A stretch of DNA of 57,526 nt from an uncultured Candidatus Saccharibacteria bacterium (GTDB lineage Bacteria; Patescibacteriota; Minisyncoccia; Phycocordibacterales; GWA1-40-21). The stretch is taken from assembly GCA_964513515.1 (NCBI GenBank), contig CAZEMP010000002.1, positions 1 to 57,526 on the forward strand, in the 5' to 3' direction. The notes under the pieces are model-generated. The model saw only the letters and a program-made list of their open reading frames with translations, was not told the origin of the DNA and made no database searches. The position numbers and the translations under genes are program-made. Below, piece after piece: positions 7,037 through 45,600 of the stretch (the first letter of the stretch is position 1; every line of letters begins with the position of its first letter).

Positions 7037-8959
7037 CTAATTTACTACCTTTCCTATGTCGTTTACATATTCTGGGTCAGAAGTAATATTAGTTGTAATG
7101 GGGCTCTTTACCTCTCCCAATCTTGCACCTGAATAAGCATCTATTCCACTTATCGTCGCCTCATTTAACAAATTTATTTCTGAACCTACTTGTGTAATAG
7201 AAGGTACTATAGCAACTTGAAATGAAACGTCTTTTGTAGGGTAACTTGTACCTATACCAGATTTCATATCACCGATATTCCATGTCACTTGTCCGGTTCC
7301 TTTATCATATGTAACATTTTCTGATTCTGGACTAACAAAACCTGTCCATCTAACATTTGGAGGCAAGAAGGCGACAACTTTGGCTCCATTTATGTTATTA
7401 AACGAATTCGTTGCTGTCCATGTTATCGTGTAAGTTGTCTCATTATCTACTTTTGGTGGAAAAGGTCCACTATTTTCAAATGGTCCAACTGTTCTAAATC
7501 CTCTAGATAATAGTTTTAAGCTTGAAGATATTTTTAATGTTTTTGTATCAGAGTATAATATTTCCTGTTCGCCTGTACCATTAGCTCCTGCTCTACTACC
7601 CAAGACAGTAATTTTTAGTCCAATATTACTACTTGCATACGAAGCTAAAGATTTTAAAGATGGAGTAAGCACTCCAAAATCAAACCTCACATCTCCCTCA
7701 TCTGAAGGAGATACTTCAGAAAGTGATGAATTTCCGTTCCTATCAAAAACGATAAAATTGTTTGACGAATTATAAAAACCTTTCTCTGCTCTTATAGAGC
7801 CTTTATCTAAATTTTGACCAACAAAATCTACTCGCAGAGACATGTCATAAACTTTCTCCGCCAAATTATTCTTCCAAACAATGACTGCTCTATTTTTACT
7901 TAAGGTATCAATAGCTATTTCATTTCCAGACTGATCATTCACAGTTACATCAACACCAACTGACGATCTTTTTAAAGAAACATTAGAAACATATAGCGCA
8001 AGCGGTGTTCCAATGACAGTATCGTCATCTCTACTTTTTGTACCAACAGTAAATTTAAAAACTCTCTCTTCTCCATCTTGTCCAGAAACTGTACCTGAAA
8101 TTCTTATATTCCTTTTTGCTCCAGGGGCCAAGTCACCAATAGAAAAGACGTCACCAAGTGATCCAGCTGGTTTGGGATTTGAAGAAGACAATGTAAAGCC
8201 AAAAGGATAATCCACTTTCAATATCAAGTCTTTAACAATATTTACCGAGTTTGAGTTTATATCCACTGAAAAATCAGTAAGTTGGTTTGCGTTTATCTCA
8301 GATGGAGCATTTACTTTTATATTTACTGGGGAAGAAGATATTAAAATATTAAAATCTTTTTGTTTGCTAAAAATTGCACTTGAACCAGAAATTCTATATT
8401 CAACATTTATTTTAACAACTTTTAAAGAATTCTCTTCTCCATACAAAACCGATTTAATCAAACGTTTTTCACTTCTACCTATACTTATATCGCCCAAGAC
8501 TTCATTGTATCTTTTCATATCAACCGTTTGATCTGTCGGGCTTTTTGTTCCATCTGGATATTCTATACGCAAATCAACCACTTTTAAATCTATATTGTTA
8601 TTATTTTTGACTTCTATCTCAAGTGGCAGCTCTTCTCCTCCTGCAATAGATACCGGTCCGCTTACCAATATATCTATATTATTTCCCGATACCACATTAT
8701 TTCCTAAGAAAAATTTGGAAAATGTAAAGACTAGAGCAAAAATAAAAAAAATAAAGGCTCCCAAAAGAATCTTGTTGTATGGAATTTGAAAATTACTTTC
8801 TGTTTCCTCCCTCTCTACATTCCAACCTACAGTCGGTCTTGTACTCGCTGTATCTTGTAGAGAATGTCTTCTTTTAGTAAAAATAGCATCCGTACTTCTT
8901 GAATAGAGAGAATCTTTTACCTTTTCTATATTATCTTTTTTCTCATTATCATCATTCAT
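7037..8959 (-). CDS. large membrane-anchored hypothetical protein with repeated beta-sandwich-like segments
   Basis: 640-aa ORF. One TM (ILLGAFIFFIFALVFTF) follows a charged N-terminus, and the rest is beta-rich and extracytoplasmic. No family named. Confidence 0.6.
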   Translation of the reverse strand: MNDDNEKKDNIEKVKDSLYSRSTDAIFTKRRHSLQDTASTRPTVGWNVEREETESNFQIPYNKILLGAFIFFIFALVFTFSKFFLGNNVVSGNNIDILVSGPVSIAGGEELPLEIEVKNNNNIDLKVVDLRIEYPDGTKSPTDQTVDMKRYNEVLGDISIGRSEKRLIKSVLYGEENSLKVVKINVEYRISGSSAIFSKQKDFNILISSSPVNIKVNAPSEINANQLTDFSVDINSNSVNIVKDLILKVDYPFGFTLSSSNPKPAGSLGDVFSIGDLAPGAKRNIRISGTVSGQDGEERVFKFTVGTKSRDDDTVIGTPLALYVSNVSLKRSSVGVDVTVNDQSGNEIAIDTLSKNRAVIVWKNNLAEKVYDMSLRVDFVGQNLDKGSIRAEKGFYNSSNNFIVFDRNGNSSLSEVSPSDEGDVRFDFGVLTPSLKSLASYASSNIGLKITVLGSRAGANGTGEQEILYSDTKTLKISSSLKLLSRGFRTVGPFENSGPFPPKVDNETTYTITWTATNSFNNINGAKVVAFLPPNVRWTGFVSPESENVTYDKGTGQVTWNIGDMKSGIGTSYPTKDVSFQVAIVPSITQVGSEINLLNEATISGIDAYSGARLGEVKSPITTNITSDPEYVNDIGKVVN

Positions 8960-9007: not shown

Positions 9008-9589
9008 CTACAAATGACTCTCTTTGAGTGCGTTGTTGATATCAAGAATTGCCATTTTTTTCTTATCATCAAATAAATTTAGCTTTTTTACAGAAAGATC
9101 ATTGTCCATGACAAAATCAAATAGATCAAAAGATTTTTTAAAATATCCGAGATGATACAAGATTCTTAAAACAGTTATTGTTTCTAAATTGTGTATATCG
9201 TCAACAGATAATTCATTTTTTAGGAGAAAATTATAAAAAGACTCAACACTGTTAAATAAGGCCTCATTTTTTTCTTCTCCGTGTAGTAATCTCAAAAGTA
9301 AAGAGAAGGTGTTCTTAATAGCAATAAGCTTACTGGTATCGGAAACGCTTATATATTCCAGTGTTTCAGCACCCACAACGCGCCATACATCCCTTCCCCT
9401 TACCAAAGATAGACTGGCGAGCAAATAATCCTGCAAATGACCTTTTAGCTTGGACTTTTGTAGACGCACACCTTGAGCAGTAGCTTTTATAAAACCAAGA
9501 TCACAGGTTAATAAAAGATAGTATTTATTTGCCTCCCCTGTCGCCAAACCTTTTATAATGAAAGCCTTGGTCGTATATATGTGATGCAT
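9008..9589 (-). CDS. recO: probable DNA repair protein RecO (short form)
   Basis: N-terminal OB-fold pattern (TKAFIIKGLATGEANKYYLLLTCDLGFIKATAQGVRLQKSKLKGHLQ) resembles RecO. At 193 aa it is shorter than canonical RecO. Confidence 0.6.
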   Translation of the reverse strand: MHHIYTTKAFIIKGLATGEANKYYLLLTCDLGFIKATAQGVRLQKSKLKGHLQDYLLASLSLVRGRDVWRVVGAETLEYISVSDTSKLIAIKNTFSLLLRLLHGEEKNEALFNSVESFYNFLLKNELSVDDIHNLETITVLRILYHLGYFKKSFDLFDFVMDNDLSVKKLNLFDDKKKMAILDINNALKESHL

Positions 9590-9611: not shown

Positions 9612-12600
9612 TTATTCTAAAAGCATTCTTGCCTTTAATCCATCTAGTTCAACAAGGTCTCCTCCATTGATTTGCTCAAAAGATATTTCTTTCAATCCTG
9701 TAACTTTTGAAATCTCATCATTGAACTTATTAAATATTTTCTTACCAACCTCGTCTATATCAACAACAAGATCAACCGTATCGGAAGGATTAAGTTTTTT
9801 ATTTTTTCTCATCTCCTGGATTGCCCTTATAATATCTCTTACAAGACCTTCTTCTTTCAACTCTTCTGTAAGAGTTGTGTCGAGTAAAACAGCATCATCA
9901 ATTGATTGGTCGAAGACAACTTCTTTTACATTTACCTCTTCTTTTATAAGACTATGAAATAGCTTATTAGCTTTCAACTTTTCATTTTTTACTTTTAGTT
10001 TTGCGAGCGGTTGTCTTACTTTTATTCCCGCTTTTGCGCGCGCCTCGAGACCTAGAGATACTATAAGTCTGGTTTCTTTCATATTTTCTAATATCTCTGA
10101 TTCTTCAGTAGAAAGATCGCCCACAAATGTATCTGACCAATTTTCCAAATGAACGCTTTCCTTCTCCATACCTCCTGTTATTTTCAAATATAAATCTTCT
10201 GAAATAAACGGCATTGAAGGAGCTATAAGTTTGGAAAATTCCAAAATTACAGTTCTGGTTGTTTGCATTGCAGAATTTCTGTCTTCCGCATCCTCAGATT
10301 TGAATCTGTCTCTTGATCTTCGTAAATACCACGTTGAAAGATCGTCAACAAAATCTCCTATCGGTCTTGTTGCTCTGTCCAACTCATAATTATCTGTGGC
10401 TCTTGTTATGCTTGTTGCTATTTCTTTTAATCGAGCAAAAATCCAAGCATCTAATACGTTTTTCGATTTAAATTTCTTTTTAAGATCCAAATCAAAACCG
10501 CCATACATTTCAAAAAATGTATAAACATTCTGAAGTCTCATAATAATTTTCTTCAAAATCTCATCTACATTTTTATTTGAAAATTTTAAATCTTCAGCTT
10601 TCATAACCGGAGAGGACAAAAGGTAGTACCTTAGTGCATCAGCGCTATAGGTGGATACTATATCCATTGGATCTGGATAATTCTTCAATCTTTTTGACAT
10701 TTTTTGACCATCTTCTGCAAGAACAGTTCCGTTTACCACCACATTCTTGTATGAAGACTCACCAAAAAGTGCCACAGAAAGTACAAGCATTGAATAAAAC
10801 CAACCTCTCGTCTGATCTATTCCTTCTGCAATAAAATCTCCTGGATAACCAATATTTTTTTCTGGATTAAATTTCTTGAGATTTTCAAATGGATAATGAG
10901 ATTCTGCAAATGGCATTGATCCAGATTCAAACCAGCAATCAAAAACTTCAGGTACTCTTTTCATCTCTCCTTTGCATGTACATTTTAAGATTATTTCATC
11001 TATAAATGGTCGATGCATATCGAGCTCATAGTTTCTATTGTGAGGTATCGGAGCAAAAGGAATTTCTTTTATCTCGGAATTTTCTATAAAAGCCGTTTTG
11101 TCTTTTCTAATAGACATTGCTTCAGTAGGTGTCATACCACCAGCTCCTGCATACATAAGCCAGATTGGAGTATTGTGAGAAACAATTAAAATATTCTTGC
11201 CTTCATGTTTTTTATCTATATCGTAAAGGAAATCTGTCATTCTGTTCTTAACAATCATATAATTCTCCCCTCCCTTGGGAGTCTTTGTAAATTTTGCCGC
11301 ACGAGATTCAAAAAATGCCTGATATTCAGCGTCTGGTTTTCCATCCATTTCTCCAACAAAGATTTCGTGCAAACGTTCATCATAAACTATTTTATCTTTT
11401 GAATAATTAATTTGTTCTGCTATTATTTCTGCAGTTTCTTTTGTTCTCATAAATGGAGAACAATATATAAAATCTATTTTTTCCTTCGAAAGATTTTTTG
11501 CAGCAAGTACTGCTTGTTCCTTCCCCTTTTCTGTTAGATGATTAACAGTTTTCGGATTTGAACTTAGTATTTGTTTAACATTACTATCAGCTTCGCCATG
11601 TCTAACTACCAAATATTTATTTTTATTTGTTGTCCTTTCTTTTATTTCTTTAATCGATCCGATAAATTCTTTTTCATTACAACTTGTGCACCTCCAAACT
11701 GGGAGAGGTGCTCCCCAGAATCTGGATCTAGAAATTGACCAATCTCGAGCCCCTTCAAGCCATTTTCCAAATCTTCCATCACCAACTTCGGCAGGGACCC
11801 ATTTTATTTTCTTATTTGCCCCTGCAAGCTTATCCTTAAATTTTGTGACTTCAACAAACCAAGAACTCGTAGCATAATTGAGAAGTGGAGTGTCACATCT
11901 ATAACAATGAGGATATGAGTGTACAAATTTTTCTTTTGCATAAAGCGTTCCCTTTCCAGCTAAATATTTTATTATTTCTATATCGGCAAGTTGTGGATTT
12001 TCGATTGGTTTTACTTTTGCACCTGCAAAATCTTTTACTTCTGACTTGAAGCGTCCATCTGTTCCAACATGTTGAATAAATGGTAACTTTTTCTCTTTTC
12101 CAAGATTCATATCGTCTTCTCCAAAAGCCGGAGCAATATGAACAATGCCTGTACCATCTTCTGTGGTTACAAAAGATGCGTCATATACTTTAAAAGCATT
12201 TTCTTTATTTTTTAATTCATTATTATTGTAATAATCAAAAAGTGGTTTATATGACATTCCTATCAAAGCTTTTCCCTCAGTCTTTTCAACTATTTCATAT
12301 GTATCTTTAATTGTAGATAATCTAGATTCTGCAAGAATAAATTTATCTTTACCAATTTTTACTTTTACATAATCAACTTCAGGATTTACTGCTAAAGCTA
12401 CATTTCCTGGTAAAGTCCAAGGGGTAGTCGTCCAAGCTAGAAAATATGTTCCAGGTTCATCCATTAGCTCAAATTTGGCAGTAACAGATATGTCAGTAAT
12501 GTCTTTATAACCTTGACTCACTTCAAAGTTTGAAAGGGTGGTTCCACAATGAGGACAAAGATGCATAGCCTTAAAACCTTCATACACTAAACCTTTTTTA

Positions 12601-13112
12601 TGTAATTCTTTAAAAATCCACCATACAGTTTCAGTGTATGACGGATTCATGGTTCTATAATCATTTTCCATGTCTACAAAACGACCCATACGAGGGATGA
12701 TCTTTTTCCATTCATCTGCATAGGTAAAAACTTTGCTTCTAGCCAAGTCATTAAATTTCTCAAGACCAAAATCCTCAACGTCTTTTTTAGATTTTAAACC
12801 AATTTCTTTTTCAACAATATTTTCAATAGGAAGGCCGTGACAATCCCAACCCCAACGACGAGCAACATGTTTGCCTTTCATAGTCTGATATCTGCCAATA
12901 TAATCTTTCATTGTCCCAGCAAGAATATGACCATAGTGTGGAAGACCGGTAGCAAAAGGAGGGCCATCATAAAAGACGAACTCACCATTTGGAGAATCTT
13001 TTTCTAAAGATTTCTTAAAAATTTCTTTTTCTTGCCAAAACTTTAGTATTTCCTCTTCTCTTTCGGCAATCTTGCTTTTTAATATAGGTTTTTCCTGATT
13101 ATTTTCACTCAT
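9612..13112 (-). CDS. ileS: isoleucine--tRNA ligase carrying an in-frame histidine-phosphatase domain insertion
   Basis: HIGH region (PPFATGLPHYGHIL), GWDCHGLP, the CP1 editing region (WTTTPWTLPGN), KMSKRL and the anticodon-binding region are present. Residues ~499-690 match the PGAM/His-phosphatase signature (see findings). Confidence 0.95.
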   Translation of the reverse strand: MSENNQEKPILKSKIAEREEEILKFWQEKEIFKKSLEKDSPNGEFVFYDGPPFATGLPHYGHILAGTMKDYIGRYQTMKGKHVARRWGWDCHGLPIENIVEKEIGLKSKKDVEDFGLEKFNDLARSKVFTYADEWKKIIPRMGRFVDMENDYRTMNPSYTETVWWIFKELHKKGLVYEGFKAMHLCPHCGTTLSNFEVSQGYKDITDISVTAKFELMDEPGTYFLAWTTTPWTLPGNVALAVNPEVDYVKVKIGKDKFILAESRLSTIKDTYEIVEKTEGKALIGMSYKPLFDYYNNNELKNKENAFKVYDASFVTTEDGTGIVHIAPAFGEDDMNLGKEKKLPFIQHVGTDGRFKSEVKDFAGAKVKPIENPQLADIEIIKYLAGKGTLYAKEKFVHSYPHCYRCDTPLLNYATSSWFVEVTKFKDKLAGANKKIKWVPAEVGDGRFGKWLEGARDWSISRSRFWGAPLPVWRCTSCNEKEFIGSIKEIKERTTNKNKYLVVRHGEADSNVKQILSSNPKTVNHLTEKGKEQAVLAAKNLSKEKIDFIYCSPFMRTKETAEIIAEQINYSKDKIVYDERLHEIFVGEMDGKPDAEYQAFFESRAAKFTKTPKGGENYMIVKNRMTDFLYDIDKKHEGKNILIVSHNTPIWLMYAGAGGMTPTEAMSIRKDKTAFIENSEIKEIPFAPIPHNRNYELDMHRPFIDEIILKCTCKGEMKRVPEVFDCWFESGSMPFAESHYPFENLKKFNPEKNIGYPGDFIAEGIDQTRGWFYSMLVLSVALFGESSYKNVVVNGTVLAEDGQKMSKRLKNYPDPMDIVSTYSADALRYYLLSSPVMKAEDLKFSNKNVDEILKKIIMRLQNVYTFFEMYGGFDLDLKKKFKSKNVLDAWIFARLKEIATSITRATDNYELDRATRPIGDFVDDLSTWYLRRSRDRFKSEDAEDRNSAMQTTRTVILEFSKLIAPSMPFISEDLYLKITGGMEKESVHLENWSDTFVGDLSTEESEILENMKETRLIVSLGLEARAKAGIKVRQPLAKLKVKNEKLKANKLFHSLIKEEVNVKEVVFDQSIDDAVLLDTTLTEELKEEGLVRDIIRAIQEMRKNKKLNPSDTVDLVVDIDEVGKKIFNKFNDEISKVTGLKEISFEQINGGDLVELDGLKARMLLE

Positions 13113-13322: not shown

Positions 13323-15029
13323 TTACATCTTCTCTGGCACCTCAATACCAAGCAAATTAAGGCCTTCTTTTATAACAATCGAAAAAGCTTCTGTTAAAGC
13401 CACCTTATAGGAAGATTCGTCTTCATTTTTATCTACAATTTTTCCAAGAGCATAAAAACTATTAAAAGATGAGGCAAGTTCTACAAGATATGTGGCGATG
13501 TAATGCGGCGAATACTCATTCCCTGCTCGCTCCACCACTTCTCTAAATCTATAAAGAATTTTTTCTAAAGCTAAAACTTCATTTTTGTTAGAAAACTTTT
13601 TCCAATCAATCTTTTTTATTTTTTCTTCCTTAGCTTTTCGTAGGATAGATCTTGCTCTTACATATGAATATTGCAAATATGGTCCTGAATCACCTTCAAA
13701 AGATATTGATTTATCAAAATCAAAAATAATATCTTTTCCATTTACCTGTTTAAGGATTGAGTATTTTAATGCTCCCACAGCCACTTTCTCGGCGACCTGT
13801 TCTTTCTCTTTTTTTGTCATTCCCCTACCATCCATTTTCTCAAGAACTTTCATTTTTACGTCATTTAGCAAAGAGATAGCAGTGATAACATCTCCGGTCC
13901 TTGAAGACATTTTACCATCTGGAAGACGAAGCATGCCGTGAGAGAGATGTACTGTCTTTGCTGCAAGTTCTGGAAAAACAAAACTCATCGCCTTCAAAAG
14001 TACTTTAAAATACTCGTTTATCTCGTTACCTGTTATAACAATAGACTTATTATATTTTGTTTTATTAAACTTTATCTTTGCAAGACCAAGTTCTTTTGCT
14101 TCATATGTAGGAAGGCCTTCAGAATTTATAAAAACTCTTGTATGTAAGCCATAATTTTCTCCTCTGAAAATAACTGAGTTATTGTCCCCTCTCTCAAAAA
14201 TCTTACCGATATTTTCTTCTACTATCTTCTTTCCAAAATCTCCAGTCTCACTTTCAAAAAAGTAATTATCAAATTTTGTACCAAAAATTTTATACATTGA
14301 TTCAAAATATTTCAAACTTATTTTTCTTCCACTTTTGTAAAGTTTCTCTACTTCTTTGTTTGAATGATTATATATCTCTTTATTTATTTCTATAATTTCT
14401 CTCTTGATTCTTTCATCTCTTTCATATGAAGTGGACCCGAGCATATAAGCCTTTCCTAGATCTGAAGCTTCTTTTATATTGCCTATAATATTTTTCATGC
14501 CCCAAATAGCTTTAGCTACATGAAGACCAACATCTCCTTGATAACAGGCTCGTATCACCTTTGCTCCATTGGCTTCTGTTATTCTTGCGATAGCTTCTCC
14601 TATTGAATTACTCATCAAATGTCCAATGTGAAATTCTTTAAAAGGATTTGGGTCTGTATACTCAATAACAGTTTTTTCACCTTTAAGATTTTTATTGAGA
14701 CCAAACTTACTTTCAACTTTTAGCACCTCTTTTGTTTGTAAAATAAAAAATTCTGGCGATAAATAAAAGTTTATGAAACCTGGCCCAGCAACTTCTGCCT
14801 TTAGAAGCTCTTTTGGTTTTCTTTCTAGAATTTCTGCAACTATTTTTTCTGCCAATTCCCTAGGATTTTGTGATACTTGCTTTGCCAAAACCATAGCAAT
14901 ATTACTTGAGTAATCGCCATGCGTTAGCTCTTCTGGGTGTTCTAGATTTATCTTAGAAACTTTAGATTCTTCAATCTTGAGGCTCCAAAGTGCTGTTTTT
15001 ATTGATTTTTCTAATACATCTCGAATCAT
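13323..15029 (-). CDS. argS: arginine--tRNA ligase
   Basis: 568 aa with the HIGH variant FKEFHIGHLMSN, the N-terminal Arg_tRNA_synt_N-like region and the C-terminal DALR-type anticodon-binding region. Confidence 0.95.
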   Translation of the reverse strand: MIRDVLEKSIKTALWSLKIEESKVSKINLEHPEELTHGDYSSNIAMVLAKQVSQNPRELAEKIVAEILERKPKELLKAEVAGPGFINFYLSPEFFILQTKEVLKVESKFGLNKNLKGEKTVIEYTDPNPFKEFHIGHLMSNSIGEAIARITEANGAKVIRACYQGDVGLHVAKAIWGMKNIIGNIKEASDLGKAYMLGSTSYERDERIKREIIEINKEIYNHSNKEVEKLYKSGRKISLKYFESMYKIFGTKFDNYFFESETGDFGKKIVEENIGKIFERGDNNSVIFRGENYGLHTRVFINSEGLPTYEAKELGLAKIKFNKTKYNKSIVITGNEINEYFKVLLKAMSFVFPELAAKTVHLSHGMLRLPDGKMSSRTGDVITAISLLNDVKMKVLEKMDGRGMTKKEKEQVAEKVAVGALKYSILKQVNGKDIIFDFDKSISFEGDSGPYLQYSYVRARSILRKAKEEKIKKIDWKKFSNKNEVLALEKILYRFREVVERAGNEYSPHYIATYLVELASSFNSFYALGKIVDKNEDESSYKVALTEAFSIVIKEGLNLLGIEVPEKM

Positions 15030-15070: not shown

Positions 15071-16042
15071 TTGATCCGTTATCAATTAAATATAAAATTT
15101 ATGGAAAATAGACAAAAAACAACAGCAAAAGATTTCTTCCTTTATCTAGGAATAATCATTGGTCTTTATGTAAGCTCAATAAGTTTTTTAATGTTAGTCT
15201 TTCAAATAATAGATAAATTATTCCCATTAAGCGGTGAATATTATTGGGGTTTTGATTCGTCTGTCAGAAGCAGTTTGGCTTCACTTATAATATTCTTCCC
15301 TGCATTTCTTTACGTTTTATATCTAGCCAACAATGATTTAAAACTCTATCCAGAAAAAAAAGAAATGTGGGTTAGAAGATGGATGATATTTCTTACTCTG
15401 TTTGTAGCAGGACTCACCATTGCTATAGACTTAACAACACTAATATATAGATTTCTTGGAGCTGAAGATCTAACACTTAGATTCTTTCTAAAAGTTTTCT
15501 TTGTATTAGCTGTTGCTATTACAGTATTTAAATCTACACTTTACGATCTAAAAAGAGATACCTTTGAGTATACAAAAAACATGAAAGTTTACAGTGCTAT
15601 TATTAGCTTTGTTGTTTTAATTAGTATTATATATGGAGTTGTACTTATCGGATCACCGGCTCAACAAAGAGCAAAAATGTTGGATGAGCAAAGGGTTAAT
15701 GATTTATCAAGTATTCAAAGTCAAATAGTTTATACACAATGGCAAAACAAGGGAGAAGTACCGGCAAATCTAGACGCGCTTAGGGATCCTATAAGTGGAT
15801 ATATGTTACCAACAGATCCAGAAACAAATGAAAATTATGGATATAAAATGATTTCAAAAAATAGCTTTGAACTTTGTGCAACGTTCAAAACAGTTAGTAT
15901 GTCAGCACAAAATGTAATTACAAAACCATATCCGTATTTTGATGGAGGAACAAATGAAAACTGGCAACACGGCGCAGAAAAAACTTGTTTTACAAGAACT
16001 ATAGATGATAAGCTTTATCCGATAAACCAAAGAAAAATTTAA
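15071..16042 (+). CDS. multi-pass membrane protein of unknown function (start may be the Met at 15101)
   Basis: Several hydrophobic helices precede a soluble C-terminal region (..RVNDLSSIQSQIVYTQW..ELCATF..). This resembles CPR-typical uncharacterised membrane proteins. Confidence 0.6.
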   Translation: MIRYQLNIKFMENRQKTTAKDFFLYLGIIIGLYVSSISFLMLVFQIIDKLFPLSGEYYWGFDSSVRSSLASLIIFFPAFLYVLYLANNDLKLYPEKKEMWVRRWMIFLTLFVAGLTIAIDLTTLIYRFLGAEDLTLRFFLKVFFVLAVAITVFKSTLYDLKRDTFEYTKNMKVYSAIISFVVLISIIYGVVLIGSPAQQRAKMLDEQRVNDLSSIQSQIVYTQWQNKGEVPANLDALRDPISGYMLPTDPETNENYGYKMISKNSFELCATFKTVSMSAQNVITKPYPYFDGGTNENWQHGAEKTCFTRTIDDKLYPINQRKI

Positions 16043-27356: not shown

Positions 27357-27878
27357 CTACTGGGCGAGTACGGCAGACGGGCAGTTGGCACCCAAGTTAT
27401 GGGAGAGAAACTTGAAGCCCAAGAACCACCAGCCATCGTGCCAGCCGTAGCTCCGGCTCCAACTTCTACCACTCCAATACAGACACAGGATGCCGCGGCG
27501 GTCGATCGGGTCCCGAAAAACCGTGCCGTCGAAGTAGATGTAGCGGATGTCACCGTTCACCTTCTTCTTCCACGATTCAGGGATGAGATGCTTATTCTCG
27601 ATGAGTGTCTGGACGATCCTGGCATCGAGGCGGGTGTGTCCCCTCTTCTTCAGGCGTTTCAGCCTCTCCTCACCCGTCACGAACGTCTCACCTTCCTTGA
27701 GCATCGTCTCGAAGCGGATCTTCGTCAGATCCACCTTAGTCAGTGTCATTGAGCGAGTATCAGTTTCGTCCTTCACGATCGTTAAGCCATCGTTGACAGA
27801 CTTCGGGTCGGAGGACTTCGTGCGGTCGATCTTGATCGTCTTCGGCTTGCCAATGATGACCTTGGTGATTTTCCCCAT
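27357..27878 (-). CDS. GC-rich hypothetical protein (173 aa from the SD-preceded Met)
   Basis: A sampled line is about 62% G+C against about 30% in the flanks. AAGGAG lies 8 nt upstream of the ATG at 27878, and a terminator follows. The C-terminus is Trp-rich (CLYWSGRSWSRSYGWHDGWWFLGFKF). No named family. Confidence 0.7.
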   Translation of the reverse strand: MGKITKVIIGKPKTIKIDRTKSSDPKSVNDGLTIVKDETDTRSMTLTKVDLTKIRFETMLKEGETFVTGEERLKRLKKRGHTRLDARIVQTLIENKHLIPESWKKKVNGDIRYIYFDGTVFRDPIDRRGILCLYWSGRSWSRSYGWHDGWWFLGFKFLSHNLGANCPSAVLAQ

Positions 27879-28343
27879 ATTAGTTTCTCCTTCCATCAAT
27901 TTACTTGACTACCGCCTATATTTAGTAGTCATAGCCAGAAGATCTCATTTTATAAGAGCTTTTGGCTATGACTACTCATGAATATGTCAAAGAACACTAT
28001 TCACACATCAATGAGTAGTTATTTTTTAATTATTTTTACCAATAATATCTGGCTTAAATTAAAAAATTCCTCGTTAGAGGAAAGATATAGATTGATTAGT
28101 CTTATCTTTCCATAATAATGCCTTTTGCATTATTTGGCTGGATTTAGCACCTACTTATTTCTAAGGGTTGCTGATGGGTCGTGGAGCCAGTTGCTCTCGC
28201 CATACTCTTGATACAACTATTAAGTTGTATGATCACGATATCATACCCAATAAATATGTCAAGTAGTTAAATGCCCTTATTTTAAGGCATACAATAGCGA
28301 ATTGACGGCTTTGTGGAGCAAAACCGTCTGCTATGTTTAATTT

Positions 28344-28377: not shown

Positions 28378-29151
28378 TTATTGTATACCAAACACCCTTT
28401 TTGCATTATCTAAAAGCTGTATCCTTACACTTTCAAAATCTTCACCGCGTATTTCTGCAATCCTTTTTATCGTTTCAACAACATAAGCTGGCTCATTCCT
28501 CTTTCCTCTATAGGGAATAGGTGCAACATATGGTGCATCTGTCTCTGCATGTAGCATATTTAAAGGAATATTTTTTACAACTTCGTCATATTGGTCCGCA
28601 AAAGTTATAACTCCTGTAAAAGAGACGGTAAAGCCTAGGTTATTAAATTTTCTTGCCCAATCAAGACTTCCGGCAAAAAAATGTATATTCCCTCTTACCT
28701 TACCTTCATATTTTTTTAATATATTATATGCATCATCGTAAGCATCTCTAATGTGGAGCATTAATGCTTTGTTATATTTTATAGCAAATTCAATTTGTTT
28801 TATAAACTCATTTTTCTGCCTGGCCTTTTCGACATCTATATCCCCAATCATTTTAAAATAATCGAGTCCACACTCACCTATTGCTACAACTTTTGGATTT
28901 TGTACCAAACCCTTAAAATCTTCCTCTCTAAAAACAAAATCTAATACATCGTGGGGATGTGCCCCGATACAAGCAAAAACATTTTCATTTTCACTGGCAA
29001 TTTTTACTGCTTCGATTGAGCTTACGAGATCTGTGCCTACTGTTATAGTGGCCATTTCAAGATCATTCATCCTTTTTAAAACATCTTTTTGATCTTTACC
29101 GTAATCAGCAAAGCTTATATGTGAATGTATGTCTATGTATTTAAATTTCAT
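28378..29151 (-). CDS. tatD: TatD-family metal-dependent hydrolase (DNase)
   Basis: IDIHSHI at the N-terminus, GECGLDY, HIRDA and ETDAPY motifs. Confidence 0.9.
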   Translation of the reverse strand: MKFKYIDIHSHISFADYGKDQKDVLKRMNDLEMATITVGTDLVSSIEAVKIASENENVFACIGAHPHDVLDFVFREEDFKGLVQNPKVVAIGECGLDYFKMIGDIDVEKARQKNEFIKQIEFAIKYNKALMLHIRDAYDDAYNILKKYEGKVRGNIHFFAGSLDWARKFNNLGFTVSFTGVITFADQYDEVVKNIPLNMLHAETDAPYVAPIPYRGKRNEPAYVVETIKRIAEIRGEDFESVRIQLLDNAKRVFGIQ

Positions 29152-38254: not shown

Positions 38255-41200
38255 TTATATTTCTCCTCCCGTCCCAGGATCAAGTTTTACTATAGTTGTA
38301 GTTGAACAACTTGAAGTAAATGTTTCTCCAGATAATAATGTTCCGCTAGTTTCAGCATTAATAGTTTTGGGACCGATTGTTGTGTAAATCTTATTGTATT
38401 CAAGTCCAGAAAGAGTTATTCCGCCAGTTGGTATATTTGTACCCGTCCATTTTGTAATAAGACTTGGAATTTCCACATCAGTAGTACTTAAAGTTGCTCT
38501 TAATGTTGTGGTTCTATTTACATATATATTGGTATCACCGGATGCGTTTCCTGCTTGTAATAAAGTACAAGTTGCATTTGATACTACCTCCGGTGTGGTA
38601 CAAAGACTTGCAATAGCAGATAAGGTATTTGATGGAATAGAGTCTCCTAAAATAGCATTATTGGCTATAACATAATAACTGTGAGGATTTGTATCTCCAA
38701 CTGGCAACACATCGATATATGGAGAAAATGAAACGTCTGGATTTATTTTTACTCCATCCTTGTAGATCTTAAAAGTGGATTCGGGTGAATCCCAACTTAA
38801 GCCTATCTGACCACACGTACTCGAGTTTACCGCAAAATTTGTTGGTGGAGATACTGTTGTCGGTCCAACGGTCACTGTTACAGACTTGCTTGCAGAATAG
38901 GTACCCTTAACACATGTAGCAGTAAAGGTTGTGTCAGTTGTTAAGGGTCCAGAAGATTTAGTGCCCGATAAATTATTATCAGGGGATGAAAACTTTTTAA
39001 TAATATGACTGCTCATATCTACAACATATACATCTCCAGAAGAATCAATGCTTAAGTCTGTAGGACCTAAAAACTGGTAATTTGCAGAACCGTAAGAACC
39101 GAATTTTGAAACATATCCACCAGATGAGTTGAATTTTTGAATATTAAAATTACTAGCATCTAAAACATAGATATTACCTGAAGAATCAAGGGATATTCCG
39201 TAAGGGTACTGAAACTGGCCATTACCAGAACCAACTGAACCAAATTTTGAAAGATATACACCATTGGAATTAAATTTTTGAATACGATAATTATAAGTGT
39301 CCACAACATATATATTATCTGAGGAATCAAGAGCTACTCCATTTGGCTGCAAAAACTGTCCGTTGCCACTTCCGTTATAACCTAAACCTGCGGTGTGTAT
39401 CCCGATAGATGAACCATCATAACCTAACCACCATAAAAAATTACCAAAAGGGTCAAATTTTTGAATACGGTGATTATATACATCGGCAATATATACATTA
39501 TTTGATGAGTCAGTAGCTATTCCCCTAGGACCACTGAATTGCCCTTGGCCAGAACCCCCAGAACCAAATTGTGAAATATATACACCAGATGAGGTAAATT
39601 TTTGGATACGATTATTGCCAGTATCCACAACATAGATATTATTTGAGGAATCAGTAGTTATTCCGGAAGGATAGGAAAACTGACTATTATCAGAACCAGA
39701 AGAACCGAACCTGGATAGATATGTGCCAAAAGAAGTAAATTTTTGTACGTGATTATTAACATTTTCTGTAATATATATATTTCCTGAGGAATCAAGAGTT
39801 ATATTATTTGGTGAAAAAGCGCTAGTGCCATATGATCCAAATTTAGAATCATATGCGCCAGCTGAAGTAAATTTTTGAATACGATTATTGCCAGTATCTA
39901 CAATGTATAAATTACCTGAGGAATCAAGAGTTATTCCCCGGGGATCAAGTAATTGTCCGTCACCAGTTCCAAATGAACCAAACTGGGAAATATATGTGCC
40001 AGCTGAAGTAAATTTTTGAATACGGTGATTACCTTGATCAACAACATATATATTATTTGAAGAATCAAAAGCTATTCCTTTAGGATTGCTAAATTGGCCT
40101 TCGCCAGAACCACCAGAACCAAATTGTGAAATATATATACCAGATGAGGTAAATTTTTTAATACGACCGTAATTATAAGAGCCTTCTACAATATATAAAT
40201 TATTGGATGAATCAATTGCTATTCCCCAAGGATTACTAAGAAATTGTGAGTCGTCACCACCATATGAACCGAATTGGGAAAGATAGGTACCTGAAGTATC
40301 AAATTTTTGAATACGAAAATTATTGATATCTACAACATATATATTATTTAAAGAATCAGTAGCTATTCCGCTAGGATACTGAAACTGACCATTACTAGAA
40401 CCAAATGAACCAAACTGGGAAATATATGTGCCAGCTGAAGTAAATTTTTGAATACGGTGATTACCTTGATCAACAACATATATATTATTTGAAGAATCAA
40501 AAGCTATTCCTAATACCCCATTAAATTGTCCATTGTCTGTTCCATAAGAGCCAAACTGGGAAATATACGTGCCATCTGATGTAAATTTTTGAATACGATT
40601 ATTGCCAGTATCTGCAATGTATAAATTACCTGCGGAATCACGGACTATTCCGGAAGGAGAGCTAAATTTAATACCAGCAAAACCATCAGAACTAAACTGG
40701 GAAACATATTGGTATGACCCGGTACTTGTAATCCAGTTGCTATCATTCTTTGTCACATCACATGAATCTGCATTAGTTGAATTCCAAGAAATATCTACAG
40801 AACCTTCAGGTGTGGTGGAAGTAGCACTTGCATCTATACTGACGTTTATAATGGGGATGACTGATATTGTTAGGTCCTTAGTTATTTCGCCCCCATCACC
40901 CTTACAATAAAGCTGAAAATATTCATCTTCTGTTATAGGTCCTGAGTCGGTAGTTATAGTACTAGGACTACCCCACGATATAACTCTGCCATTACCAGTC
41001 AAAGTACAAGAAGTGCTGTTAGTTATACTTGCAGAAATAGTTGCGGAGTTATTATAATCAACTGGATTAGGAGTAGCATAAAAAGAAGTAATAGCAGGAG
41101 CGGGTATTGGAGGTGTATACGTACAATATTGATTTGCCCCTATAATATCTGTACTAGTAATGGTACAACCAGACGGTAAATATACCGGAGTATAACAATA

Positions 41201-42553
41201 TAATACACCGTTTACATCACATGGGGCAAAATTATTATTCCAGCAATAAGCATAAGTGCACGGATATGCCTCTACTTTACTCAAAGGTAAAAAATAAAAT
41301 AAACTACTCGATATTATTATCACACCAAATATCATTATTAAATATTTTTTTCTGTAAACCAAAGCACCCAAACCCATAACCACAAGAACAAGTGCTATAA
41401 TTTTTAGAAACATTGCAATTGTTGAAAATGTTGGTGTTGTTGTACTTACAACGGTCATGACTTCATAATTTTGTGTATCAAGAATGGTGCCATTTGATGA
41501 AAGTATTATATTAGCTTTTGGATTAGTACAGTCTTTAGTGATTGGTATTTTTAGATTAATTATTGAAAAGTTAGATATATCTTTTGTTGTGGTTTCCGAA
41601 CATAGACCTGTATCGTCAGTGATGCTCGCTGTAATTGTACTTGTACTTACTCCTGTCTGCGTTGAGAATACTTGAAGATTTGCTGTGTCTCCTCTCCTAT
41701 AATATGTTTTGTCAAAAACTACGTTTTTTATTTCACCCGCTATGCCCGATAGAATGTAATTGATTGAGATAGTGTTAGATGTAGTTTTTGAATCTGGGGT
41801 TTTTAGGAAAAAAGAAATATTGTAACTCTGTGGATTTGATGCTTTTGGTAAGATTATGTTTATATCACTAATCCCCTTCTTGATTATGATGTTTTCTCTA
41901 GAACCTCCTGTATCAGAAACTGTCTCTCCAAATATTGTGTGACTTCTAGTTATAAAGTTTGGTGTAAAAATTGTGTTTGTAGATAAATTGCTTTGTACCA
42001 AACATTTTATGGTGACTACATCTGTAGAGTTTATAAGAACCACTTGGCTCAATAAATATTGTTCCTTCGCTGTATTTTTAACGAGATAACAAGAGTCGGG
42101 AATAATTTGAATTATATTTGGTAGATTATTCGTAATTTTTACCTCGCCAACCAGAGCTGTGCCCAGAGATAATCCATTCTCATTTTTACTATCAATCCAC
42201 ATTCTGTATGTACCTACAGATATTGAAGATGGAATACTATAATCAATAACCTTTGTTATCTTAGTGTTTTCTGCTAAGGAGATGGTTTCTTCATATACCT
42301 TTTCATCGAAAATCACTTGGTTTGTTGAAGATGACGTCAATCGCACAGAATATTTTATCTGTGGTTGGGCTCCTACCCTATTTGATATATCAAAAGATAT
42401 TTTATAGTCTCTATCATTACTTAAGACTATTTTTGCATTACTTATATTTACTGTGGCTACGACTGTGCCTTGGGAGTTTTGGGCGAAGGCATTGTGAGAG
42501 AAAAGTGTAGTGAGAAGAAATATAGAAAACATTGATCTCAATATTATTTTCAT
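38255..42553 (-). CDS. giant surface protein: signal peptide, conserved N-module, TM hairpin, Ig/PKD-like domains, 12 NHL repeats, C-terminal PKD-like domain
   Basis: 1432 aa with twelve ..GxxNxRIQKFxSxGxYxSxFGSxGxxxGQFxxPxGIAxDSSxNIYVxD.. units, i.e. two six-bladed NHL propellers. The N-terminal ~370 aa are nearly identical to the adjacent paralog. Confidence 0.85.
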   Translation of the reverse strand: MKIILRSMFSIFLLTTLFSHNAFAQNSQGTVVATVNISNAKIVLSNDRDYKISFDISNRVGAQPQIKYSVRLTSSSTNQVIFDEKVYEETISLAENTKITKVIDYSIPSSISVGTYRMWIDSKNENGLSLGTALVGEVKITNNLPNIIQIIPDSCYLVKNTAKEQYLLSQVVLINSTDVVTIKCLVQSNLSTNTIFTPNFITRSHTIFGETVSDTGGSRENIIIKKGISDINIILPKASNPQSYNISFFLKTPDSKTTSNTISINYILSGIAGEIKNVVFDKTYYRRGDTANLQVFSTQTGVSTSTITASITDDTGLCSETTTKDISNFSIINLKIPITKDCTNPKANIILSSNGTILDTQNYEVMTVVSTTTPTFSTIAMFLKIIALVLVVMGLGALVYRKKYLIMIFGVIIISSSLFYFLPLSKVEAYPCTYAYCWNNNFAPCDVNGVLYCYTPVYLPSGCTITSTDIIGANQYCTYTPPIPAPAITSFYATPNPVDYNNSATISASITNSTSCTLTGNGRVISWGSPSTITTDSGPITEDEYFQLYCKGDGGEITKDLTISVIPIINVSIDASATSTTPEGSVDISWNSTNADSCDVTKNDSNWITSTGSYQYVSQFSSDGFAGIKFSSPSGIVRDSAGNLYIADTGNNRIQKFTSDGTYISQFGSYGTDNGQFNGVLGIAFDSSNNIYVVDQGNHRIQKFTSAGTYISQFGSFGSSNGQFQYPSGIATDSLNNIYVVDINNFRIQKFDTSGTYLSQFGSYGGDDSQFLSNPWGIAIDSSNNLYIVEGSYNYGRIKKFTSSGIYISQFGSGGSGEGQFSNPKGIAFDSSNNIYVVDQGNHRIQKFTSAGTYISQFGSFGTGDGQLLDPRGITLDSSGNLYIVDTGNNRIQKFTSAGAYDSKFGSYGTSAFSPNNITLDSSGNIYITENVNNHVQKFTSFGTYLSRFGSSGSDNSQFSYPSGITTDSSNNIYVVDTGNNRIQKFTSSGVYISQFGSGGSGQGQFSGPRGIATDSSNNVYIADVYNHRIQKFDPFGNFLWWLGYDGSSIGIHTAGLGYNGSGNGQFLQPNGVALDSSDNIYVVDTYNYRIQKFNSNGVYLSKFGSVGSGNGQFQYPYGISLDSSGNIYVLDASNFNIQKFNSSGGYVSKFGSYGSANYQFLGPTDLSIDSSGDVYVVDMSSHIIKKFSSPDNNLSGTKSSGPLTTDTTFTATCVKGTYSASKSVTVTVGPTTVSPPTNFAVNSSTCGQIGLSWDSPESTFKIYKDGVKINPDVSFSPYIDVLPVGDTNPHSYYVIANNAILGDSIPSNTLSAIASLCTTPEVVSNATCTLLQAGNASGDTNIYVNRTTTLRATLSTTDVEIPSLITKWTGTNIPTGGITLSGLEYNKIYTTIGPKTINAETSGTLLSGETFTSSCSTTTIVKLDPGTGGEI

Positions 42554-42654: not shown

Positions 42655-45600
42655 CTAGATTTCCCCGCTCGTTCCTGTATCTAATCTTACTGTTGTGGTT
42701 GCAGAACAATCTGAACTAAATAGGGTTCCGTCTGGACGAATAACTGTTGTGAAAGCATTTATCATTTTTTGTCCTACTGTTGTGTATATTTTATTTAATG
42801 TGTCACCAGAAGTTCTATTCTTTAATAGATTTGTACCTATCCATAATGTACTTTGAGGATCGCCGGCGGTATTAGTAATTTTCCATATAGTATTTCTATT
42901 TAAATAGATATTATTATCTCCAGGCTCGTTACCCGTCTGTGTAACTGTACATATAGATGCTGGTTCTGGTTGTACAGGACAAATCCTTGTAGTAATTGGT
43001 GACTCTCCAAGCGTACAGCCAAGAGGGCTTGCTTCTATAACGTTTCTGGTCTGTGTGCTTCCTACCGAACAAGCAGATGGAAACCAATCATCATATAAAA
43101 ATGCAATGCATGCGACTTCACCTGGGATACAATTTTGGGTCAAAGATAATGTTTCGGAAGGTTCACCAGAACAACCTTGTGGAAGGTTACCCACAAGAGT
43201 TCTTGTCCTAAAACCTTCAGCTGGACACACAGATGGTAGCCAGTCTGAATAGTCATATCCTACACACTGACAAGATGAACCCCCGCAAGATCTATGCACA
43301 ATAGGCGTTGTAACAACCGTTGGGGTTTCATTATAAACATTAATAATAACTAACTCTGATCTAGAATTTTCAGTATTCATACATGTCGCTGTAAAAGTTG
43401 ATGCTTCATTTAGATTTCCAGTATTTATATTAGTACCTGACGTTGCCGTTGAAAGTATTCGATTAACATCACCTAAGTTTTCCACTATTTCGCAGGAATC
43501 TGCTCCAGTTGAAGTCCAAGAGAGAGTTGTAGAGTTACCAGACAAAATAGATGATGACGCTGCTGTAAATTGTATATTTATTGGAAAAGCTGCTAGGTCC
43601 ACCAAAACTGAGTCTGTCTTTGAATTTGTATTATACATACATGTTGCAGCAAAAGTAGTTGGTGATGTTATTGGACCAGATGATCTAGAGCCAGATAAAC
43701 TACTTACTGTCATTGATTGTGAAAATTTTTGAATTCTATCATTCCCGCTGTCAACCACATATATACTATTTGAAGAATCAACAATCGCTGCTATTGGTGC
43801 TTTAAACTGGCCGTCACCACTTCCGTATGAACCAAACTGAGATACATAAACGCCTGAAGAAGTAAATTTTTGAACTCGATTATTTATTTCTCCACTTCCG
43901 CTCTCTACTACATATAAATTATCATAAGCGTCGGTAGTTATTGATGCTGGAACATAAAATTGTCCGTTACCGTCTCCATAAGAACCAGATTTGGAGATAA
44001 ACGTACCGGAAGAAGTAAATTTTTGAACCCAGTTGGAATAATCTAAAACATATACCTTACCTGTTGAATCAGTCGTCATTGATATTACATAATAAAACTT
44101 TCCATCACCTGATCCTAAAGAGCCAAATTTTGAAATAAATCTTCCTGAAGAATCAAACTTTTGAATACTCGCTGATTCATTTTTAATATCATAGTTACCA
44201 TTATAATCATAGCCGTTGTAACGATATGCTACATATATATTATCTGAAGAATCTATAGTTATTGCGGTTGGAAATGGTCGGCCTACGCCATTGCCAATAC
44301 TATAAAATTTGGAAATAAATCTTCCTGAAGAATCAAACTTTTGAACCCTACCATCAGTTGAATCTAAAATATATATATTATCTGAAGAGTCTATCGCCAT
44401 ACCAATCATACTCATAAAATAACCGTCGATATCACTACCGTACTCACCAAATTGAGATATGAACGCACCAGATGAATCAAATTTTTTAATTTTAACATTC
44501 TTGGTATCTAAAACGTATATATTACCAAGTGAATCACGAGCAATTCCCTTATCGCCACCATGAAATCCGTAAACATCAAGGAATGTATTGAATTGAGAAA
44601 AATATTCATAACCAGATGCGCTTGTAACTAAGGGGGAACCGTTCTTTGTTATCAAACAAGAGTTAGCGCCAGCCGAGCTCCAAGAAACCGTAGTTGAACT
44701 ACCTGTCAGAACCACAGTAGAACTAGCGTCTATATTAACCATTAAAGGAGATGAACAATGTTGACTCAAAACTGGTGAACCGCCAGAACAATTGTTTGGT
44801 AGTGCAGCTGTAATGCTTCTGGTTTGTTGATTGTTTGAACAAACCCCCCAATCAGAGTACGTAAAGGATGTACAAGTTTGAGGAATAACTGATACCACAA
44901 CCTGATTCGTTGCTGTGCCGTCATCTCCGGTGCAGGACATAGAAAATGTCGTGTCAGATGTCAGTGGTCCAGATGATACTGAGCCCGATATATTTTGAGA
45001 AAATTTTTGAACACGAAAATTATTTTTATCTAAAATATACACATTATCAAAAAAATCTATAGATATGGGCAGTTCCGATCCAAAGGAAATACTATTGCCA
45101 GAAAAAAATTTGGAAATATATTCACCAGAAGAAGTAAATTTTTGAACATTATTAACACCTGAAACATAAACGTTATCCAAAGAATCGATACCTATTCCTA
45201 TCGGATAATAAAACTGGCCATCACCAGTACCATATGAACCAAATTGTAAAATATAGTTACCAGTAGAATCAAATTTTTGAATACGATGGTTAAGTCTGTC
45301 GGCAACATATATATTGTCTGAAGAATCAACGGCTATTGCAAAAGGGCTGCTGAATTGTGCAATACCAGAGCCAGAGGAGCCAAATTGGGAAACATATTGT
45401 CCGGATGAACTAAATTTTAGTATACGATTATTATCAGTGTCTGCAATATATATATTTCCAAAAGAATCAATGCCTATATCTCTAGGTGAGCTAAATTGAC
45501 CGTTGCCAGAGCCAGAGGAGCCAAATTGGGAAACATATTGTCCGGATGAACTAAATTTTAGTATACGATTATTACCTGTGTCTACAACATATATGTTATC

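Follow-up and report, generated by a model that had tools for sequence, protein, structure and literature searches.

A histidine phosphatase nested in the isoleucyl-tRNA synthetase of Patescibacteria and its genetic link to ileS

A single open reading frame (ORF; 9612..13112, minus strand) in a 57,526-nucleotide stretch of DNA from an uncultured Candidatus Saccharibacteria bacterium (contig CAZEMP010000002.1 of assembly GCA_964513515.1; the whole stretch is hereafter called the window) encodes a type-2 isoleucyl-tRNA synthetase (IleRS) of 1166 amino acids (aa) in which a phosphatase is nested. The one chain shows two intact predicted active sites. Comparison with relatives further shows that the orthologue group of this phosphatase has a near-obligate genetic link to ileS, which takes at least four interchangeable forms (an adjacent gene and insertions in three different loops). 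The reading that we favour, with modest confidence, is that of a bifunctional IleRS-phosphomonoesterase, the phosphatase having been selected for its co-production with, or its proximity to, IleRS.

An IleRS with a phosphatase domain in connective peptide 3

The Pfam assignment of the window protein gives tRNA-synt_1 (PF00133) in two stretches (E=1.8e-137) with His_Phos_1 between them, as the initial annotation of this DNA had expected, followed by Anticodon_1 and DUF5915. The NCBIfam equivalog for ileS (TIGR00392) matches with 879.4 bits, above its cut-off of 621.4. The best matches among solved structures are type-2 enzymes, namely P. megaterium IleRS2 (8c8u, E=9e-230), yeast IleRS, Candida IleRS and T. 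thermophilus 1ile (7e-214), whereas the type-1 IleRS 1ffy scores far lower (2.5e-90 against ~1e-214 to 1e-230 for type 2). The type-2 C-terminal domain (PF19302, DUF5915) is present at aa 1075-1165, replacing the type-1 zinc-binding C-terminus. Both class I signatures, HYGH (aa 59-62) and KMSKR (aa 804-808), are intact, and the isolated editing-domain structure 1wk8 matches aa 201-402. Neither a second ileS nor a second His_Phos domain was found elsewhere in the 57.5-kb window.

Conservation was followed in two samples: the best 120 clusters at 90% identity matched by the full window protein (59-82% identity, most of them 1150-1210 aa long), and a set with one genome per GTDB species, in which at least 80 loci match the query over its full length, both junctions included, with identities as low as 44%. 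In the genome orthologues H59, K804 and K807 are kept in 70 of 70 sequences and H62 in 69 of 70. The editing-domain motifs of connective peptide 1 (CP1), WTTTPWT (W227-T233) and GTGxVHxAPxFG, are invariant across 61 orthologues, as are the residues G320-T321-G322, H325 and D333. The parts of the gene are as follows.

9612..13112, minus strand: whole gene, type-2 IleRS with nested phosphatase, 1166 aa (ORF, TIGR00392, Pfam)
11631..13112, minus strand: N-terminal part of IleRS, aa 1-494, with the first Rossmann half, CP core, CP1 editing domain, CP2 and the first half of CP3 (aligns to 8c8u 9-478)
12927..12938, minus strand: HIGH-type signature HYGH, aa 59-62 (conserved in genome orthologues)
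11679..11690, minus strand: first half of the CP3 zinc knuckle, CTSC, aa 475-478 (sequence motif)
11034..11630, minus strand: nested histidine phosphatase, aa 495-693 (PF00300, AlphaFold2 model, stand-alone homologues)
11595..11603, minus strand: RHG motif with R504, nucleophile H505 and G506 (conservation)
11445..11447, minus strand: second phosphate-binding arginine, R556 (conservation)
11364..11366, minus strand: putative general acid, E583 (conservation)
11175..11177, minus strand: second catalytic histidine, H646 (conservation)
11028..11057, minus strand: return linker FAPIPHNRNY, aa 686-695 (near-invariant in orthologues)
10974..10982, minus strand: second half of the CP3 zinc knuckle, CTC, aa 711-713 (sequence motif)
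10689..10703, minus strand: KMSKS-type signature KMSKR, aa 804-808 (conservation)
9612..11033, minus strand: C-terminal part of IleRS, aa 694-1166, with the second half of CP3, second Rossmann half, anticodon-binding and type-2 C-terminal domains (aligns to 8c8u 483-869 and onwards)
aa 888-1037 of the same protein: Anticodon_1 (Pfam)

In the alignment with 8c8u, residues 14-494 of the window protein correspond to chain residues 9-478 and residues 694-1089 to 483-869, and ~199 insert residues stand in place of a 4-residue loop. Residue 494 pairs with approximately residue 499 of the C. albicans IleRS, whose CP3 comprises residues 473-534 (PMC7191050), and the insert therefore lies inside CP3. 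The equivalent CP3 subdomain of T. thermophilus IleRS has a zinc-binding motif (PMC7191050); in the window protein its CxxC half (CTSC) precedes the insert and its CxC half (CTC) comes after. By alignment, the phosphatase is positioned at the tip of the CP3 zinc knuckle, in a peripheral connective peptide outside the Rossmann core proper. The initial annotation, which spoke of an insertion inside the catalytic core, was right as to the nesting within IleRS but too loose as to the site. Its length of 1166 aa for IleS is borne out by the single ORF; its ~200 extra residues (aa ~496-696, placed at 11030-11630) become ~199 residues (aa 495-693, mapped to 11034-11630). Its central claim, a complete histidine phosphatase nested in frame and not a neighbouring gene, stands, as the ORF, the Pfam matches, the structure alignment and the catalytic residues agree.

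The junction alignment is clean: an insert-free relative reads SRKELGV immediately followed by DDKFDLHKPFID, and the window protein reads SIKEIKERTT followed by the 199 aa. Base composition is even across both junctions. In the 61 orthologues, F686 and H691 of the return linker are invariant and P688, I689, P690 and N692 nearly so; the stand-alone homologues described below end before this linker and hence have no FAPIPHN. The window protein has the complete set of four CP3 zinc-knuckle cysteines, but 24 of 70 orthologues that keep the insert have lost the whole set, which suggests that the zinc site is dispensable once the phosphatase is present.

Within the insert, His_Phos_1 (PF00300) covers aa 501-674 (E=6.1e-37; 127.6 bits with a gathering threshold of 21.7; profile positions 2-175 of 194). 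The insert is a member of branch 1 of the histidine phosphatase superfamily, with the catalytic quartet R504, H505, R556 and H646 and with E583 as the acid; the four motifs quoted in the initial annotation are all found (RHG at 504-506, R556 in CSPFMRTKET, E583 in LHEIF and H646 in VSHNT). Each residue of the quartet is kept in 70 of 70 genomes, and position 583 is E in 68 and D in 2. Among the 120 clusters, R504, R556, E583 and H646 are invariant and H505 is kept in 119. Mean pairwise identity of the insert is 42% (minimum 27%) versus 62% for the IleRS N-terminal core, and the retained residues show strong purifying selection on the predicted phosphatase active site despite the divergence of the insert. 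Stand-alone Patescibacteria proteins of ~190 aa can be aligned with the insert over its whole length and theirs, which means that a whole gene-sized domain was inserted.

AlphaFold2 models the insert with a predicted local distance difference test score (pLDDT) of 94.3 and a predicted template modelling score (pTM) of 0.91, and the full-length protein with 83.9 and 0.72, respectively. In the full-length model, the mean pLDDT of 10-residue blocks is 86-96 over aa 481-720, making the insert and both linkers confident, with 87-93 in the return linker. The best Foldseek matches (probability 1.00) are the small-molecule phosphatases PspA (4ij5/4ij6), Rv2419c, TIGAR, CobC and PhoE, with template modelling scores (TM) of 0.72-0.81 (0.81 to 4ij6, 0.72-0.73 to 1h2e/1ebb) and a root mean square deviation (rmsd) of 2.1-2.8 Å. 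Most phosphoglycerate and bisphosphoglycerate mutases superpose at an rmsd of 6-8 Å (TMt 0.54-0.63). Likewise, all the phosphoglycerate mutase (dPGM) models stay far below cut-off with the insert alone (dPGM_arch 107.6 vs 225 bits, pgm_1 32.9 vs 81.7, GpmB 49.3 vs 261, the remaining ones 37 bits or less). The insert stops at the last beta-strand, as the ~190-aa stand-alone phosphatases do, while dPGM has a longer cap and a C-terminal tail. A true phosphoglycerate mutase was rejected on the NCBIfam cut-offs and the structural ranking, and the label "PGAM-type" of the initial annotation is thus correct for the superfamily and wrong for the activity. The phosphatase equivalogs are below cut-off as well (PspA 79 vs 350, CobC 83.5 vs 162.9, SixA 42.9 vs 74.5), so that no substrate can be transferred from these enzymes. 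Overall, the insert is a predicted, catalytically competent histidine phosphatase of the phosphatase type (PhoE/PspA/CobC-like) and not a mutase.

An assembly chimera, a frameshift masking two or three genes, or a decaying pseudo-domain could in principle produce such a protein. The only broken versions of ileS seen are in L001, L002 and L080, on contigs with apparently frameshifted gene calls. On L001 (4448-8074) and L002 (4337-7857), ileS and its insert are split into 3-4 gene calls, and the L001 break falls exactly at the RHG motif (P0003 begins MRHGEAE). In the 189-aa fragment P0006, the second catalytic His is replaced by Q (ILIVSQNTPI); its C-terminus deviates from the conserved IleRS motif of the relatives, and the change may be a sequencing error. 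On the other hand, the unrelated L001 neighbours encoding IF3 and a SIS protein are split as well and P0004 (from L002) contains a frameshifted stretch, which points to indel-prone assemblies. A single uninterrupted frame of at least 1100 codons runs over both junctions in 69 of 80 GTDB loci, the rest being mostly cut by contig ends, and also in 25 metagenome loci. PF00133 and PF00300 occur together in 120 of 120 best clusters, which come from independent projects, and both the uniform base composition at the junctions and the invariance of the catalytic residues speak against decay or chimerism. A frameshift or chimera was accordingly rejected, and an artefact of any of these kinds, to which we attach only a minimal probability, is effectively refuted and excluded for practical purposes. 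The distribution across the candidate phyla radiation suggested for survey by the initial annotation is wide: the insert is found in at least 80 GTDB species loci, in addition to all 120 clusters, the titles of these loci naming Taylorbacteria (a part of the Parcubacteria group of Patescibacteria), Lloydbacteria, Nomurabacteria, Paceibacterota and Parcubacteria; the bacterium of the window is itself of the Parcubacteria group.

Linkage to ileS and recurrence in other loops

The closest relatives of the insert are the stand-alone proteins P0005, P0013, P0026, P0028 and P0035 (39-44% identity over the full length), which are annotated as "histidine phosphatase family protein / PhoE" and share its catalytic residues. 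All five of the close stand-alone homologues that could be placed are encoded immediately 5' of an ileS without the insert (921-978 aa), from which 1-12 nt separate them. Of these five loci, four (L083, L084, L086, L088) have the gene order of the window, i.e. ArgRS, phosphatase, IleRS, RecO, with the phosphatase gene between argS and ileS, and three of the four also share the large protein and the class II aminoacyl-tRNA synthetase (aaRS) of the window. Neither of two more distant family members is near ileS. The two genes that anchor this synteny in the window are given below.

13323..15029, minus strand: upstream neighbour argS (ArgRS), synteny anchor (Pfam; synteny with L083, L084, L086 and L088)
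9008..9589, minus strand: downstream neighbour, recO-like gene, synteny anchor (RecO_N; same order in L002, L083, L084, L086 and L088)

Two further genes belong to this neighbourhood. Downstream of recO, a 640-aa protein without a Pfam match (7037-8959, minus strand) is a conserved synteny partner; the corresponding proteins of L002 and L083-L086 match CLIPPER, DUF7619 or muHD no more than faintly or weakly. A DUF5671 protein (15071-16042, plus strand) lies beside argS, as it does in L002.

When metagenomes were scanned with a profile built from the stand-alone group, 80 loci were obtained, of which 75 were informative and 5 lay at contig ends. The phosphatase gene abuts the 5' end of ileS in 45 loci and is nested in ileS in 25; ileS lies 0.7-1.4 kb downstream in 2, and is not found downstream in the remaining 3. 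The linkage to ileS is thus seen in 72 of the 75 informative loci, and it persists in unrelated genomic neighbourhoods. ArgRS served as a control: in some genomes argS stops only 2-3 nt short of the phosphatase gene, yet the phosphatase domain is absent from all of the 120 best ArgRS clusters of this clade. Pfam finds no nested foreign domain in ArgRS, MetRS, PolA or other large proteins of the window.

The neighbour-joining tree of the IleRS core, which is unbootstrapped and used only for the interleaving of nested and adjacent forms, does interleave the two. Adjacent-type IleRS form the successive sister groups of the main nested clade (69 sequences), and at least 11 gains or losses of the insert at the site occupied in the window follow from the tree. 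The position of the adjacent-type sisters makes it more likely that the upstream gene entered the CP3 loop than that the nested domain left it, and the form in the window would most likely have arisen in this way.

To map insertions more widely, the 150 best IleRS relatives from a HMMER search of 1.84 billion representatives at 50% identity were placed on a hidden Markov model (HMM) built from 27 insert-free IleRS; this model replaced regular-expression anchors, which missed many sequences. At least one His_Phos domain is found in 106 of the 150, at three sites: site A, that of the window (HMM ~486; 96 domains, the window protein counted), site B (HMM ~540, in the loop after the DxWF[DE]SG motif; 7 domains) and site C (HMM ~668, just before the anticodon-binding domain; 7 domains). 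Some proteins have two copies, in the combinations A+A in tandem (P0271), A+B (P0375), A+C (P0267) and B+C (P0349, P0368). The site-B, site-C and tandem copies keep all five catalytic residues, save one change of E to N. One of the site-B proteins is annotated as Candidatus Peregrinibacteria (PCI25629.1). The variants with insertions at site B, at site C or with GNAT are each encoded by one gene; their contigs measure 23-268 kb, and their neighbourhoods are unrelated. Identity across the copies at the three sites is about equal (31-47% in best BLAST hits), a level at which separate captures and intragenic moves are not separable.

Other domains are nested in related IleRS too: NUDIX at CP3 in P0384 and farther upstream (HMM ~215-280) in P0325, P0377, P0347 and P0374; GNAT in P0356 and P0363; an alpha/beta Ser_hydrolase in P0371; and an AAA_18 P-loop domain in P0302. 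The phosphatase is combined with GNAT or NUDIX in one and the same IleRS in P0356, P0363, P0347 and P0374. IleRS in these lineages is a recurrent host of whole-domain insertions. Within a few kb of ileS there is a stand-alone NUDIX gene in L086, L001 (1015-1473) and L090 (479-943), and in L086 also a stand-alone GNAT gene, a hint that neighbours may be the source of nested domains; the L086 feature is listed below. A different kind of insertion is seen in P0345, whose gene call includes an IS200-like Y1 transposase domain (PF01797, ~352-428), which may be a real gene-disrupting insertion sequence or a read-through of gene calling.

L086 1-525: stand-alone accessory-family gene near ileS (NUDIX/GNAT neighbourhood)

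Possible functions of the phosphatase

The substrate type of histidine phosphatases is a terminal phosphoryl group. By the chemistry of the family, the nested domain would strip such a group via phospho-His505, with R504, R556 and H646 holding the phosphate and E583 serving as the acid. The comparative data suggest that selection would act on co-production and proximity with IleRS and not on one set geometry, given that three alternative loops, as well as a neighbouring gene of its own, are all in use for the phosphatase. Such variable tether points would fit a diffusible substrate, or a large flexible one such as tRNA or IleRS itself. As a candidate substrate, a phosphorylated small metabolite or nucleotide that is processed beside IleRS is given a little less than an even chance; a phosphorylated or pyrophosphorylated tRNA 3' end is an unlikelier candidate, at about one chance in four, and phospho-IleRS or another protein appears improbable. 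That the nested domain has no catalytic role at all is very improbable at most. The initial annotation, too, put forward its functional ideas as speculation.

Several observations weigh against a functional partnership with IleRS. The closest solved structures are those of ordinary metabolic phosphatases, and the insertions occur at three dispersed points of the IleRS sequence; both facts also fit a phosphatase unrelated to aminoacylation. Since unrelated NUDIX, GNAT, alpha/beta-hydrolase and AAA_18 domains are nested in related IleRS, the synthetase may simply tolerate insertions. Conserved ileS operons without a known functional link exist in other bacteria (e.g. ribF-ileS-lspA in E. coli), and the unbootstrapped tree implies many state changes. 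These observations could be accommodated if a housekeeping metabolic phosphatase (phosphoserine, sugar-phosphate or PGAM-like) had been captured by tolerant loops, with no mutual influence between it and IleRS; the stand-alone GNAT and NUDIX genes within a few kb of ileS in L086, and the NUDIX genes near ileS in L001 and L090, suggest just such local capture. We hold this explanation to be unlikely, if far from negligible. It does not predict that the link would be kept in 72 of 75 loci or outlast a complete change of neighbourhood, nor that ArgRS, which is just as adjacent, would never carry the phosphatase; the repeated insertion at three sites, the occurrence of double copies and the existence of distant members of the same family without an ileS link also argue against it.

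Among functional alternatives to the small-molecule candidates, the tethered phosphatase could repair tRNA acceptor ends, freeing them of a 3'-phosphate block, or of the last phosphate of a 3'-pyrophosphate, and thereby enabling charging; the NUDIX, alpha/beta-hydrolase, kinase and GNAT modules of the relatives would then be further tools of the kit. The group to be removed is terminal, as expected for a histidine phosphatase, although we know of no member of the superfamily that acts on RNA 3' ends. A long tRNA lying along IleRS would be reachable from several tethers, which fits the three sites, and NUDIX and His_Phos domains occur together in P0347 and P0374. Toxins that pyrophosphorylate the tRNA 3'-CCA and block aminoacylation exist, some of them specific for particular tRNAs (10.1101/2021.04.30.441581; PMC11559606). 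Nevertheless, the PADLOC defence models match neither the insert nor the stand-alone P0005, and the restriction to IleRS is left unexplained. Charge gives no specific signal of nucleic-acid binding either: the median net charge is +16 for the stand-alone forms and +10 for the nested forms, with +9 and +26 for the IleRS cores of the same lineages, and the basic character of the phosphatase is likely an effect of a lysine-rich proteome, since nested forms and IleRS cores are basic too. Taken together, tRNA repair appears rather unlikely.

The possibility of a protein substrate is raised by members of the superfamily such as SixA, PGAM5 and Sts-1, which are protein phosphatases, and by the HipA-type kinase toxins, which inactivate aminoacyl-tRNA synthetases. 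Acting in cis, the nested domain could dephosphorylate IleRS (e.g. after inhibition by a kinase) or sense a phospho-metabolite and so tune the synthetase. An enzyme acting in cis needs a tether only, which would fit the variable sites, and the return linker is conserved. However, the SixA model matches only the N-terminal half of the domain and stays below its cut-off, the top structural matches are small-molecule enzymes with a cap subdomain, and no kinase partner was seen in any examined neighbourhood, which makes a cis-acting regulator distinctly improbable. A broader and likewise improbable proposal would combine the phosphatase with the nested NUDIX, alpha/beta-hydrolase, P-loop kinase-like and GNAT modules into a synthetase-mounted toolkit for repair or detoxification. 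That this toolkit restores tRNA acceptor ends blocked by toxSAS-like toxins (3'-phosphorylated or 3'-pyrophosphorylated) or reverses the phosphorylation of IleRS by toxins is, to us, equally speculative; if true, it would be a built-in countermeasure of episymbiotic bacteria with small genomes against toxins that target translation.

Relation to known systems and significance

Apart from the CP3 loop, where ~199 residues replace 4, the window enzyme resembles the type-2 IleRS of P. megaterium (8c8u) and T. thermophilus (1ile) over its whole length, being collinear and sharing the HYGH and KMSKR signatures, the CP1 motifs and DUF5915; the CP3 zinc knuckle is shared with the T. thermophilus enzyme. 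It is not a member of the MupA/MupB resistance enzymes (775 and 762 bits vs cut-offs of 1900). The insert, in turn, has the fold, the catalytic set and about the size of H. thermophilus PspA (4ij5/4ij6, a phosphoserine phosphatase), Geobacillus PhoE (1h2e), CobC (6e4b, an alpha-ribazole phosphatase) and Rv2419c (4pz9), which differ in being free-standing and are 21-29% identical to it. The stand-alone phosphatases upstream of ileS differ in that they are separate polypeptides, paired with insert-free IleRS and without the return linker.

Catalytic domains nested in loops of a Rossmann-fold chain are familiar from the CP1 editing domain of IleRS, ValRS and LeuRS and from the INS domain of bacterial ProRS. 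As in these, an entire second active site is inserted in a loop of one chain. However, CP1 and INS hydrolyse mis-acylated tRNA or adenylate esters and are universal in their families, whereas the insert has a phosphomonoesterase fold, is restricted to particular clades and is interchangeable with a separate gene. The RNase H / acid phosphatase of the M. tuberculosis Rv2228c type (NF005567) also joins a CobC-like phosphatase to a nucleic-acid enzyme, and its model gives one of the better NCBIfam scores for the insert (83 bits, far under the cut-off of 326), but it is an end-to-end fusion with another partner and not a nested domain. Since NCBIfam curates an IleRS with an N-acetyltransferase domain (NF040702), extra enzyme domains on IleRS are not wholly unrecorded. 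The window protein is not a member of that family (303.9 bits vs 1999, over aa 11-290 only, with no acetyltransferase match in Pfam). Searches of the full-text literature turned up neither an aaRS with an embedded phosphatase nor an account of insertions in Parcubacteria IleRS, in line with the initial annotation, whose author was aware of none. The partnership of IleRS with a phosphatase therefore appears to be undescribed. An aaRS with an accessory domain is a known kind; it is the breadth and recurrence of the phosphatase association that make the present case noteworthy.

Further features of the window are a SAM riboswitch (RF00162; 28099-28217, minus strand; 58.7 bits vs a gathering threshold of 44.4), located in the gap between an ORF at 28378-29151 (minus strand) and ORFs near 27357-27981, and two adjacent giant proteins rich in NHL repeats/beta-propellers (38255-42553 and 42655-47277, both minus strand; 1432 and 1540 aa), which may be surface or adhesion proteins of a presumably episymbiotic bacterium.

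The aminoacyl-tRNA synthetases have been thoroughly catalogued, and their accessory domains (editing, tRNA-binding, signalling) have repeatedly given new biology. For annotation, the present case has a direct consequence, as several of the nested proteins carry at NCBI only the name "class I tRNA ligase family protein", others being named "isoleucyl-tRNA synthetase". Retention of the phosphatase with one synthetase across a large part of Patescibacteria is strong comparative evidence of a functional partnership. Should tRNA ends, IleRS or a nucleotide by-product be the target of the phosphatase, it would represent a new layer of translation quality control or regulation. If it is a metabolic enzyme, the same proteins would illustrate the packing of unrelated activities into essential proteins in extremely reduced genomes. 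They would also show that a whole domain can be accommodated at the CP3 tip and in two other loops of IleRS, which would be useful for protein engineering.

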